Assembly (NCBI GenBank): GCA_030835405.1
Contig: JAURPG010000106.1
Span: 6,067 to 70,066, forward strand
Reading direction: 5' to 3'
Origin: Gammaproteobacteria bacterium
GTDB taxonomy: Bacteria > Pseudomonadota > Gammaproteobacteria > Eutrophobiales > Eutrophobiaceae
Length of the DNA stretch: 64,000 nt
The translations under genes and the position numbers were made by a program. The notes beneath the pieces were generated by a model. That model did no database searches. It saw only the letters and a list, made by a program, of their open reading frames with translations, and had not been told where the DNA came from. Below, in pieces: positions 39,507 to 43,194 of the stretch. The number at the start of each line of letters is the position of its first letter. Within the stretch, counting starts at the first letter, position 1.

Positions 39507-41984
39507 ATGTTTTCATTGGTTACAAAGTTGTATGACCGCCTTGTCCTAAAAAAACCAGGGTTTGTATTAGTCCTGGTGGCGATCATCAGTATTGGTGCCG
39601 GTTATTATACCCAGGACTTCAAGCTAGATGCCTCCGCGGATTCATTATTATTGGAAGGGGATGAAGGGTTACGTATCTTTCGCGAAACCAGTGAAACGTT
39701 TGGCACTCAGGATTTTCTCTTTGTCACTTTTGTCCCTGAGCAAGATATCTTTTCAGATGAATCCCTGGAAGTGATTAAAAAATTAAAAGCTGATTTTAGT
39801 AACTTGCCACTGGTTGATTCAGTTGTCTCCATTATTGATGTACCGCTGGTGCAAAATGCAGGGAGCAAACTTTCAGATGTGGCCAGTAATTATAAAACTC
39901 TGGTGGAAGATGATGTGGACAGGGATGCCGCGAGACAGGAACTTTTAGAGAGCCCTATATACAGTAATTTGATTATCAGTGACGATGCCAGGATGACTGC
40001 ATTGCAGTTAAACCTGAAAACAAATACCGGATATCTGGATGCCCAAAAACAAAGAAATAGTCTGCTTATTAAGCGCTCACAACAGGGTTTGACTACAGTT
40101 GAGCAACAGGAACTGGAGCAGGTATTGGAAAACTACGAGAATGCCAAGGCAGATTTTGATACCGCAAACCATGAAAACATAATCAAGATCAGGGAAATCA
40201 TGAAAGACTATCAACAGTATGGCGAAATTCATCTAGGTGGATTGACCATGATAGCTGATGACATGATCCGGTTTATAAAAAAGGATTTGATAGTTTTTGG
40301 AATTGGCGTATTCAGTTTTTTAATTATTATGTTGTCTATCATTTTCAGAGGTATCAGGTGGGTCGTTCTTCCACTGGCCAGCTGCATTATTGCCGGATTG
40401 ATTATGATTGGGCTGTTAGGTTTTATTGGTTGGCAGATAACAGTTATCTCGTCCAACTTTATCTCCCTGATGCTGATATTGACCATGTCTATGAATGTAC
40501 ATTTGATTGTACGTTACCGACAATTGAGTCGAGACAAACCTGGTCTCGGGCAGCATGAGCTGGTGTCTGAAACAACCCGGTGTATGGTATGGCCGTGTCT
40601 GTATACGGCCCTGACAACGATGATTGGGTTCGGTTCTCTGGTGGTGAGTGAAATAAAGCCTGTCATTGATTTTGGGTGGATGATGGTACTTGGGTTACTG
40701 GTCACTTTTCTAACATCATTTTTATTCTTACCCAGCGTACTGGTAATGCTGAAAAAGGCGAATATTCCTGATGGCGAGAAGGAACAAACGCCATATACCG
40801 CAATATTATCCAATTATACAGAGAAGCATGGGTTGTTGATTCTTGTTATTACACTTGTCCTGGCCATGGTCAGTATGGTTGGGATCACCCGGTTGAGGGT
40901 GGAGAATAGTTTTATAAATTATTTCAGCGACAGCACTGAAATATACCAGGGACTGGAGCAGATAGATCAACGTCTCGGTGGGACTACACCTCTGGACGTC
41001 ATTATTACCTTCGACCCTATTAAGGAATATGGTGAACAGACAGACGATGAATTTGATGAGTTTGATGATCTGTTTGGTGAATTTGAAGCCGACCCTGCCG
41101 ATGCCTGGTTTACCTCATATAAAATGGATCGAATCAAGGATATACATGACTATATGGACGGTCTATATGCAGTAGGGAAAGTGCTTTCCCTGGCATCGGT
41201 TGTAAGGCTGGCAGAAAGTCTCAATGAGGGAGAGGAGTTTGATGCCTTTGAGCTGGCGGTCATTTATAAAAGGATCAGTCCGGAATTAAAGCAGAGCATA
41301 ATCGATCCCTATATTTCCATAGATGATAACCAGGCGAGGATTTCTACCCGCATACAGGATTCCTTGCCGGACCTGAGACGAAATGACCTGATAAATCAGG
41401 TTAAAAATGACTTGCGTGGCCGATTTGGACTGGAAGATGATGAATTTGAATTAACCGGACTCCTGGTGTTATACAACAATATGTTGCAAAGCCTGTTTAA
41501 ATCACAAATCTTGACCCTTGGTGTGGTCATGGCCGGCATTGCACTCATGCTGTGCGTATTATTTCGGTCAGTTTCTCTAGCCATCATCGGGATTATTCCC
41601 AATATTCTGGCGGCTTCAATTATTTTGGGAATCATGGGGCTATTTAATATCCCTCTGGACATGATGACCATTACCATTGCAGCCATTACCATCGGAATTG
41701 CAGTAGATAACAGTATCCATTATATATACCGGTTCAGGGAAGAATTGCCAAAGCATGAAAATAACTATTTGGCGACTATGCATTATTGTCATGCAAATAT
41801 CGGTAAGGCGGTTTTTTATACCGCCACCACCATCATTGTAGGGTTCTCGATACTGATATTTTCTAATTTCATCCCGACCATATACTTCGGTCTACTGACC
41901 GCATTGGCGATGTTCATCGCGCTTTTGGCGGCCCTGACCTTACTACCCAGGTTAATAATATTATTCAGGCCTTTTAAAGAGTAA
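39507..41984 (+). CDS. MMPL/RND-superfamily exporter (HpnN-like lipid transporter architecture)
   Basis: It has two repeated halves. Each has one TM segment, a large periplasmic loop, then a 5-TM bundle (for example LIVFGIGVFSFLIIMLSIIFRGIRW... and LTLGVVMAGIALMLCVLFRSVSLAIIG...). About 825 aa from the Met at 39507. Confidence 0.65.
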   Translation: MFSLVTKLYDRLVLKKPGFVLVLVAIISIGAGYYTQDFKLDASADSLLLEGDEGLRIFRETSETFGTQDFLFVTFVPEQDIFSDESLEVIKKLKADFSNLPLVDSVVSIIDVPLVQNAGSKLSDVASNYKTLVEDDVDRDAARQELLESPIYSNLIISDDARMTALQLNLKTNTGYLDAQKQRNSLLIKRSQQGLTTVEQQELEQVLENYENAKADFDTANHENIIKIREIMKDYQQYGEIHLGGLTMIADDMIRFIKKDLIVFGIGVFSFLIIMLSIIFRGIRWVVLPLASCIIAGLIMIGLLGFIGWQITVISSNFISLMLILTMSMNVHLIVRYRQLSRDKPGLGQHELVSETTRCMVWPCLYTALTTMIGFGSLVVSEIKPVIDFGWMMVLGLLVTFLTSFLFLPSVLVMLKKANIPDGEKEQTPYTAILSNYTEKHGLLILVITLVLAMVSMVGITRLRVENSFINYFSDSTEIYQGLEQIDQRLGGTTPLDVIITFDPIKEYGEQTDDEFDEFDDLFGEFEADPADAWFTSYKMDRIKDIHDYMDGLYAVGKVLSLASVVRLAESLNEGEEFDAFELAVIYKRISPELKQSIIDPYISIDDNQARISTRIQDSLPDLRRNDLINQVKNDLRGRFGLEDDEFELTGLLVLYNNMLQSLFKSQILTLGVVMAGIALMLCVLFRSVSLAIIGIIPNILAASIILGIMGLFNIPLDMMTITIAAITIGIAVDNSIHYIYRFREELPKHENNYLATMHYCHANIGKAVFYTATTIIVGFSILIFSNFIPTIYFGLLTALAMFIALLAALTLLPRLIILFRPFKE

Positions 41985-42178
41985 TTTATCTTTTCCTTTC
42001 CAAATCAATAAGATATATTCTGCTTTTGAGTTTGATATACTGTCATTAAAACTTTTAGGAAATTTTAAACTCAGAAAAGTGTAACTGAATAGCCTATTCA
42101 GACGTTATATTTCAAAGTTGTGGTAACCCGCGGCGACATTTTTAAGAAATAATAATATAACAACTTACTAACCAGGAG

Positions 42179-42805
42179 ATGGTAATGAAACGCCATGTAG
42201 TAGTGTCATCAATTCTTGTCACTGCAATATTCTTTTTTTCACAACTTGTATACGGACAATCTGGGACAGCTGTGGATCTGGTGAAATCAACTACTATTGA
42301 GGTGGTTGACCGAATCAAAACTGATCGTGACAAAATTGAATCTGACCCGGACTATATTTTTCTATTGATGGACCAGCTTGTGGTACCGCATTTCGATTTT
42401 CAAACTATGTCAAGGGCGGTACTTGGTGCCGCATGGCGAAGTGCCTCATCTGAACAGCAAACTGCATTTTTAAATGAATTTAAGGAACTTTTGATTGGTA
42501 CCTATGCTACAAACCTGACAGAATATTCTGATAACCAGATTGTATTTCATCCAGATGAGACCAGACCTGATTCACGTTTTGTGCTGGTCAGAACTGAAGT
42601 TAAGGGGGCCGTAAATAATAATCCACTGCCTATTGATTATCGTATGCACCATGTTAATGGAAAGTGGATGGTTGTTGACGTTGCTGTAGATAAGGTCAGT
42701 CTGGTATCTACATACAGGGGGTCATTCAGGTCAGAAATAAATAATGATGGCCTGGATTCGTTGATTGCAAAACTGGCAGAAAAGAATAACAGAACCCCGT
42801 TGTAA
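42179..42805 (+). CDS. MlaC/Ttg2D-family periplasmic lipid-binding protein (HpnM-like)
   Basis: A signal peptide is present. The block PHFDFQTMSRAVLGAAWRSASSEQQTAFLNEFKELLIGTYATNLTEY matches the MlaC core. It sits immediately upstream of ibaG-murA, as mlaC does in enterobacteria and pseudomonads. Confidence 0.7.
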   Translation: MVMKRHVVVSSILVTAIFFFSQLVYGQSGTAVDLVKSTTIEVVDRIKTDRDKIESDPDYIFLLMDQLVVPHFDFQTMSRAVLGAAWRSASSEQQTAFLNEFKELLIGTYATNLTEYSDNQIVFHPDETRPDSRFVLVRTEVKGAVNNNPLPIDYRMHHVNGKWMVVDVAVDKVSLVSTYRGSFRSEINNDGLDSLIAKLAEKNNRTPL

Positions 42806-42936
42806 GAAATATTCAGTTTTTTCTGGTACTTTTCAGAATTTCCTTCATCTAGAAATTATCCGTCCGGCATTTTCCGGACAGAATCATTTGTCAATTAGGA
42901 GTATAATATTTCCGATAGTGTTACCAGGAGACCACG

Positions 42937-43194
42937 ATGAATATTGAAGAAATTAAAAAAATGATTGCCGATGGATTGGAAGGGTCTACTGTGATCGTTG
43001 ATGGTGATGGAACTCATTTTTCTGCGGTTGTTGTCAGTGAGGAATTCCAGGGAAAATCCATGGTCCAGCAGCACCAGCTTGTCTATAAAACCCTGGGAGA
43101 CAAAGTCGGTGCTGACATACATGCCTTGAGTTTGAAAACCTTGACGCCTGATGAATGGGAAAAAGAAAAATATATCCGTACTGTCAGTGAATAA
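42937..43194 (+). CDS. ibaG: BolA-family protein (IbaG/YrbA)
   Basis: It is an 85-aa BolA fold with a conserved position upstream of murA. Confidence 0.8.

Follow-up and report, generated by a model that had tools for sequence, protein, structure and literature searches.

Which inner-membrane machinery serves the periplasmic lipid carrier MlaC when the genes for the MlaFEDB ABC transporter are missing from the locus that canonically holds them? The question is raised by a 64,000-nt stretch of contig JAURPG010000106.1 (assembly GCA_030835405.1, positions 6,067 to 70,066 of the forward strand) from an uncultured marine gammaproteobacterium of the order Eutrophobiales, hereafter the window. In it, ibaG and murA are preceded by a gene for an MlaC-family protein and, upstream of that, by a gene for a large MMPL/RND transporter (Table 1). 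A preliminary description, made from the sequence alone, had proposed that this transporter takes the place of MlaFEDB in an RND-driven route of lipid transport. We consider it probable that the two proteins form a functional pair, in which a proton-driven lipid exporter would load MlaC for anterograde transport.

The transporter belongs to the MMPL/RND superfamily

The MMPL/RND assignment was borne out by profile search: PF03176 matched the protein at 104.7 bits (cut-off 20.5; E 6e-30) over two stretches, which correspond to the two-fold repeat already read in the preliminary description. The length of 840 aa given there for a gene starting at 39507 did not hold. An 840-aa product is obtained from a TTG codon at 39462 (open reading frame (ORF) 39462–41984), which overlaps purN. 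Translation is likely to begin instead at the ATG at 39507; the resulting product of 825 aa has the same length as a database protein of 100% identity (P0001) and as almost every homologue.

The best NCBIfam match was HAE3 (TIGR00921), at 182.3 bits, short of its cut-off of 351.9. The two HpnN models scored 124.3 bits (TIGR03480, cut-off 751.85) and 102.7 bits (NF052374, cut-off 1100), so that membership of the HpnN family is not supported, and HpnN (6wu0) was also its best match by sequence among solved structures, at 52 bits only. An AlphaFold2 model (predicted local distance difference test (pLDDT) 81.2, predicted template-modelling score (pTM) 0.72) has 12 predicted transmembrane (TM) helices and two periplasmic domains. 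Its fold matches were MmpL5/4, MmpL3, HpnN and NPC1/Patched (template-modelling score TMq 0.63–0.71, identity 10–15%), and, judged by this predicted fold, every one of the structural relatives belongs to the lipid-moving branch of the RND superfamily.

TM10 carries the motif G730-x-x-x-D734-N-x-x-H738-Y, which is invariant among 47 homologues, and TM4 carries N330/H332, where MmpL3 presumably has an Asp–Tyr pair; this combination would be compatible with a single-Asp proton relay. Mean column identity over the same 47 homologues was 72%. Between the window and one related locus (L004), identity was 64% for the transporter, 65% for SecF and 65% for HisD, versus only 43% for MlaC. Conservation at this housekeeping level, together with the invariant GxxxD, fits what would be expected of an active proton-coupled transporter, and that it is conserved like SecF suggests a core envelope function, uncharacterised in these bacteria.

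Residues ~507–535 (window ~41025–41111), in the second periplasmic domain, form a highly acidic loop (DDEFDEFDDLFGEFEAD / EYGEQTDDEFDEFDDLFGEFEADPADAW) that was modelled with low confidence and is kept in the family consensus. Docking of this loop onto a basic MlaC was considered and rejected, as mature MlaC has an isoelectric point (pI) of 5.2 and most members of its family are acidic to neutral; with MlaC acidic too, simple charge docking between loop and carrier is unlikely.

A predicted periplasmic carrier of the MlaC family

The product of the gene at 42179, which the preliminary description had called MlaC-like, matched PF05494 at 173.7 bits (cut-off 26). Its AlphaFold2 model (pLDDT 86.7) has the same fold as known family members: the top 12 PDB matches were all MlaC/Ttg2D-family proteins from Neisseria, Bordetella, Pseudomonas, Ralstonia and E. 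coli (TMt 0.70–0.88), several of them containing bound phospholipid. Identity to these solved proteins was 23–31%, and 25% to E. coli MlaC. By eye, the sequence begins with a hydrophobic Sec-type signal, MVMKRHVVVSSILVTAIFFFSQLVYG, that ends before QS and has no lipobox cysteine, as predicted for a secreted, soluble periplasmic protein. The pI of the mature protein contrasts with that of E. coli MlaC (9.1).

On the HpnM model TIGR03481 the protein scored 105.9 bits, below the cut-off of 160.1. We rejected this score as a sign of hopanoid function after a control in which E. coli MlaC itself reached 69.3 bits on the same model, which shows the match to be generic. The enterobacterial MlaC equivalog NF011697 was also missed (74.6 bits versus 195), which is expected for a distant gammaproteobacterium because the model is narrow.

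The transporter–MlaC pair recurs in related loci

A contig scan with the transporter protein yielded 80 loci, all from metagenome-assembled genomes (MAGs) or single-cell assemblies and 77 of them with a callable transporter ORF; stretches of up to 10 kb on each side of the gene were annotated by tblastn, ORF clustering and phmmer. At 38 of the 77 loci the transporter gene is followed immediately by an MlaC gene of the same orientation, and at one (L063) the MlaC gene lies directly upstream; 28 of the 38 run on into murA. In these relatives, transporter gene and mlaC are separated by −4 to 427 nt (median 184).

About 27 loci, with transporter identities of 57–89%, share the gene order of the window: secDF-pdxB-purN-(small inserts)-MMPL-MlaC-IbaG-MurA-HisG-HisD. 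The locus is not a one-off, its order recurring in dozens of independent MAGs. Carriers of the arrangement include the complete chromosomes OZ242169.1 and OZ271833.1. The closest genome match, with 89% transporter identity, was Candidatus Eutrophobius brisbanensis (L003, JAYPQE010000003.1); Ca. Eutrophobius belongs to the gammaproteobacterial GTDB order UBA4486, for which the name Ca. Eutrophobiales has been proposed (PMC11758582). In that MAG (L003, 13691–15473) only the first 77 residues of MurA are encoded before the gene meets a valyl-tRNA synthetase-like fragment of the other strand, which probably marks an assembly junction or a rearrangement.

A second group of eight loci (L022, L025, L027, L032, L033, L041, L049 and L081) includes a Ca. 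Thioglobus/SUP05 MAG (L033) and Acidiferrobacteraceae MAGs. Here lptB, lptA, lptC and kdsD lie on the minus strand, and the plus strand reads [unassigned gene]-MMPL-MlaC-IbaG-Grx4-MurA. The upstream genes exceeded their NCBIfam cut-offs (LptB 367 bits, cut-off 240; LptA 117, cut-off 71.7; LptC 87, cut-off 38; KpsF/KdsD 363, cut-off 204). The E. coli reference order is murA-ibaG-mlaB-C-D-E-F, divergent from yrbG-kdsD-kdsC-lptC-A-B; because both flanks are conserved, the transporter gene of the SUP05-type loci fills the exact mlaFED interval of E. coli. These two flanks are the strongest evidence for what would be an in-situ replacement at the locus, and they give further backing to the claim that the pair of the window stands in the canonical Mla slot upstream of ibaG–murA.

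The pairing is also seen in unrelated neighbourhoods, where the transporters are 46–55% identical. In a Pseudomonadota MAG (L053), a Deltaproteobacteria MAG (L058) and a Thermodesulfobacteriota MAG (L074), the transporter and MlaC genes are followed by a convergent gene for an MlaA-like lipoprotein (E 2e-22 to 3e-30 against E. coli MlaA; E 7e-34 to MlaA; 117 bits on NF011672), and L061 carries the pair on a short contig. Because the pairing recurs in such unrelated contexts, in some with an MlaA-like gene, we argue for a functional link between the two proteins.

In four Rhodospirillaceae/Rhodospirillales-type MAGs (L054, L060, L068 and L072), a gene for a ~150-aa MlaD-like MCE protein was found a few kb from the transporter gene, at variable spacing, and no MlaE was found in any locus. 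Its presence is probably a coincidence, although it may encode an MCE partner for the transporter.

Genes for MlaFEDB are absent from the locus

The preliminary description had found no MlaFED at the locus, and wider searches agree. Pfam scans of the ~57 ORFs of the window revealed none of MlaA, MlaB, MlaD, MlaE and MlaF, and phmmer searches with the E. coli proteins against all six-frame ORFs of ≥40 aa found no match to them in the window. Nor was MlaE or MlaD found in any locus with the window order or the SUP05-type order (~1.3 Mb of loci searched overall), and in neither group, nor in the window, do mlaF, mlaE, mlaD and mlaB stand beside mlaC.

The reported lack of mlaB between mlaC and ibaG was likewise upheld: mlaB of E. 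coli is 294 nt long and encodes a STAS protein of ~97 aa, so the gap of 131 nt is too short for it. Across all window-order loci the MlaC-to-MurA spacing is 294–563 nt, which leaves no room and excludes mlaB throughout this group. The genes absent from the locus are thus exactly those for the inner-membrane complex (F, E and D) and its cytoplasmic partner (B), with the periplasmic carrier retained. The same Pfam scans found no shc/hpn gene in the 64 kb, in agreement with the earlier statement that the window has no squalene–hopene cyclase.

A proposed lipid-export pathway and its alternatives

In the pathway that we propose, the MMPL protein, powered by the proton gradient, would extract a membrane lipid from the inner membrane in which it resides and load it onto MlaC; this soluble carrier would then take the lipid through the periplasm in the direction of the outer membrane. 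The lipid would most likely be a glycerophospholipid or lysophospholipid, because of the proteins that the MlaC of the window resembles. Contact between the two proteins, the substrate and the direction of transport are all modelled on the known behaviour of RND/MMPL exporters and MlaC proteins. As to origin, an MMPL gene would have taken the place of mlaFED at an ancestral mlaFEDCB-ibaG-murA locus, with mlaB lost and mlaC staying behind.

Several points weigh against this pathway. The two genes of the window are 194 nt apart and are not translationally coupled as their counterparts are in Campylobacter jejuni; phmmer found no MlaA-like ORF, and hence no such outer-membrane partner, in the window; and the substrate is something that we purely infer. 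At 38 of the 77 transporter loci no MlaC gene was found, either adjacent or anywhere in the fetched stretch, examples being alphaproteobacterial dnaB/alr-MMPL-radA/cvpA-purF loci and a Marinobacter MAG. With half of its loci lacking MlaC, the transporter needs no adjacent MlaC and can be encoded alone.

It might then be that the two genes are neighbours by coincidence, mlaC being the leftover of a split mla operon whose product works only with an MlaFEDB encoded elsewhere, while the MMPL protein exports something unrelated. The 194-nt spacer and the many transporter loci without an adjacent MlaC gene would suit this explanation, and conservation within the window-order group could reflect vertical inheritance of a single rearrangement. 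We nevertheless think it improbable. Distant MAG lineages (L053, L058, L074 and L063) show the pairing again, in different surroundings and with the genes ordered differently, and in some of them an MlaA-like gene is present too; C. jejuni (bioRxiv 10.64898/2026.08.28.747810) and hopanoid loci (PMC12324291) provide further cases; and in the SUP05-type loci the MMPL gene stands exactly between two conserved flanks. Still less credible, and in our view very improbable, is a true HpnN/HpnM pair transporting hopanoids or another polycyclic isoprenoid. HpnN and HpnM models rank near the top of the NCBIfam matches, and HpnN is the best PDB match of the transporter by sequence, but the scores are far under the curated cut-offs (124 versus 752, 103 versus 1100 and 106 versus 160 bits), the HpnM model gives even E. 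coli MlaC 69 bits, the window holds no shc/hpn gene, and the solved relatives of its MlaC belong to canonical Mla systems, several with phospholipid bound. Of the HpnN/HpnM arrangement named in the preliminary description, family membership is therefore not supported, while the analogy is reasonable as a statement of mechanism.

The explanation closest to ours holds that mlaFED(B) and mlaA are encoded elsewhere in the genome, and that a single MlaC is shared between the ABC complex (retrograde) and the MMPL protein (anterograde), so that only gene order has changed. It is a serious possibility, to which we give rather less than even weight. C. jejuni is split exactly so, with mlaEFD in one operon and mlaA-mlaC-RND in another (bioRxiv 10.64898/2026.08.28.747810), and PMC11289387 describes MlaFEDB as widespread in Proteobacteria. 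A transporter of the same group also occurs in a Marinobacter MAG (L080). Marinobacter is expected to have a canonical Mla operon. Nothing speaks directly against such sharing, which differs from our preferred explanation only in the retention of MlaFEDB, but neither MlaE nor MlaD appears in the window or in either group of loci, and the difference in pI between its mature MlaC (5.2) and that of E. coli (9.1) may hint at an altered docking surface.

Conversely, MlaFEDB may have been lost from the genome. We advance only tentatively, and regard as rather unlikely, the proposal that entire orders of marine Gammaproteobacteria, for the most part uncultured (UBA4486/Ca. Eutrophobiales, SUP05/Thioglobus, Acidiferrobacteraceae-like and others), have lost it altogether, leaving the MMPL/RND protein as MlaC's only inner-membrane partner in an obligately anterograde Mla-type pathway. 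Because the C. jejuni precedent keeps mlaEFD elsewhere, replacement of MlaFEDB function is not established. The degrees of confidence given here are not mutually exclusive: a shared carrier and full replacement are sub-cases of the preferred explanation, a functional MMPL–MlaC pair, which is itself neutral on MlaFEDB retention.

RND/MMPL transporters are known as exporters. A lineage with an MMPL protein instead of MlaFEDB as MlaC's genomic partner would therefore allow a natural test of whether lipids reach the outer membrane by anterograde, proton-driven delivery; abundant marine groups, SUP05 among them, carry the arrangement widely. Which way MlaC shuttles phospholipid has been a matter of debate for years (PMC10212509 is one example). 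Were MlaFEDB present elsewhere in the genome, the locus would be a further Campylobacter-type dual system and less remarkable.

Locus layout and other features of the window

The ORF list and profile searches give a plus-strand run of queA, tgt, yajC, secD, secF, pdxB, purN, MMPL, mlaC, ibaG, murA, hisG and hisD. Coordinates of its central part are collected in Table 1.

Table 1 Features at and around the transporter–mlaC pair (window coordinates)
Feature	Position	Strand	Basis
PurN; upstream neighbour of the MMPL gene	38885..39502	+	TIGR00639, 191 bits
MMPL/RND (HAE3-like) inner-membrane transporter, 825 aa	39507..41984	+	PF03176
Spacer between MMPL gene and mlaC, 194 nt, AT-rich	41985..42178	none	sequence read
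MlaC-family periplasmic lipid-binding protein, 208 aa	42179..42805	+	PF05494, 173.7 bits
Gap between mlaC and ibaG, 131 nt	42806..42936	none	sequence read
IbaG/BolA-family protein	42937..43194	+	PF01722, E 4.7e-19
MurA; conserved downstream anchor of the Mla locus	43203..44462	+	TIGR01072, 607 bits

The spacer upstream of mlaC contains an AGGAG ribosome-binding site immediately 5′ of the mlaC ATG and, as its only terminator-like element, a weak hairpin (42117–42134); a promoter and terminator scan found no consensus promoter within it. Between mlaC and ibaG lie a GC-rich hairpin (42859–42882) and a TATAAT (42902–42907). Over 38800–44600 the scan returned 7 promoter-like sites, versus 16.4 in shuffled controls, and only weak hairpins, and it is uninformative on co-transcription of the MMPL gene and mlaC, for or against.

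Downstream of hisD follow a degS-like gene, petABC, sspAB, a BON-domain gene, diaA/gmhA, yraN, lpoA, rsmI, the RNase P RNA, mraZ and the dcw cluster; in the assembly of a close relative that extends further rightward (L085, GCA_040265195.1) the dcw cluster continues and nothing else was found. We take this order to mirror the PA4456–PA4416 region of Pseudomonas, where mlaFEDCB precedes ibaG-murA-hisG-hisD.

Elsewhere in the window, a multihaem cytochrome with paired CXXCH motifs, similar to MtrA/PioA (15527–16462), is followed by an MtrB/PioB outer-membrane porin (16484–18973; PF11854, E 9e-102). Together (15527–18973) they look like an MtoAB/PioAB-type module for extracellular electron transfer (iron oxidation or reduction) in a UBA4486 gammaproteobacterium. 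A cluster at 3822–15230 holds two B12-binding radical SAM enzymes (8421–11277), two methyltransferases (11207–12954) and a radical SAM/SPASM protein (12954–13961), flanked by group-1 glycosyltransferases and a sulfotransferase, at a lower GC content (0.38). It could be an island for the modification of polysaccharides, lipids or ribosomally synthesized and post-translationally modified peptides (RiPPs). The ORFs at 6093–7271 and 3125–3631 gave no Pfam match.

At 21289–25090 lies a planctomycete-type pair, a DUF1592/1588/1587/1585/1595 and cytochrome-c-domain protein (823 aa) followed by a DUF1552 (HXXSHH) protein; GC content rises to ~0.50 over 22–26 kb, which suggests horizontal acquisition. 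The ORF at 25118–26677 encodes a 519-aa protein that consists of little other than ankyrin repeats, an unusual find in a free-living bacterium. A MbnB/TglH/ChrH (DUF692) family enzyme and an overlapping 305-aa ORF with no Pfam match (30151–31958) resemble in layout a DUF692-plus-partner pair for RiPP or metallophore modification. The first 2,000 nt (1–2000) have a GC content of 0.515, versus 0.38–0.45 for most of the window, and hold a 381-aa ORF with no Pfam match and a gene for an SRAP (SOS-response-associated peptidase) protein.

Comparison with known systems

That an MlaC-family carrier can be coupled to an MMPL/RND transporter is known from the HpnN/HpnM TIGRFAM models with a 2025 preprint and from a 2026 preprint on C. 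jejuni, and the latter precedent (bioRxiv 10.64898/2026.08.28.747810) lowers the novelty of the present locus. In the literature we found no description of an MMPL substitution in which both flanks of the canonical mlaFEDCB-ibaG-murA locus are conserved, of its spread over many uncultured marine gammaproteobacterial lineages including SUP05, or of the distinct, highly conserved MMPL subfamily involved.

In C. jejuni, Cj1371-Cj1372-Cj1373 (mlaA-mlaC-RND) are co-transcribed and mlaEFD is kept in a separate operon; for the mlaA-mlaC-RND genes, an anterograde, proton-driven transport of phospholipid is what the authors propose (bioRxiv 10.64898/2026.08.28.747810). As with Cj1372-Cj1373, a putative periplasmic phospholipid binder of the MlaC family is genetically linked in the window to an MmpL-like RND transporter, and the related loci L053, L058 and L074 add an MlaA-like gene. 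The order differs: in the window RND-mlaC, separated by 194 nt and lacking a neighbouring mlaA, versus mlaA-mlaC-RND with overlap of the mlaC stop and RND start in C. jejuni. The window thus has neither an mlaA in the operon nor an mlaC translationally coupled to the RND gene, and its pair differs from that of C. jejuni in position as well, standing in a gammaproteobacterium at the canonical mlaFEDCB-ibaG-murA slot.

Hopanoid transport is the role proposed for the HpnN/HpnM/HpnS module (PMC12324291). There, as here, an HAE3/MMPL-type RND protein adjoins an MlaC-family protein, sometimes together with an MlaA-like lipoprotein, and HpnN is the closest solved structure by sequence; both proteins of the window, however, fall well below the HpnN/HpnM cut-offs, and no genes for hopanoids surround them in the window. 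Producers of hopanoids are reported to have HpnM as a second copy of MlaC, in addition to a canonical mla operon (Tripathi et al. 2025, cited by PMC12324291), whereas the MlaC of the window sits at the canonical locus itself.

With mycobacterial MmpL3 and other MmpL exporters the transporter shares its predicted fold class, the 12 TM helices with two periplasmic domains and a proton-relay-type GxxxD in TM10, but it is only 10–15% identical to them and is set in a diderm Gram-negative envelope with an MlaC carrier. The closest likeness in gene order is to the canonical locus of E. coli (b3195–b3189): ibaG and murA lie downstream, MlaC has the same fold, and the SUP05-type relatives also share the divergent kdsD-lptCAB. 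The hisG and hisD genes after murA presumably follow the Pseudomonas order, in which we take the Mla locus to be PA4456–PA4450. What sets the window apart from the canonical locus is that MlaF, MlaE, MlaD and MlaB are absent, and that an RND transporter, predicted to be proton-driven, stands in place of the ATP-driven ABC/MCE complex.

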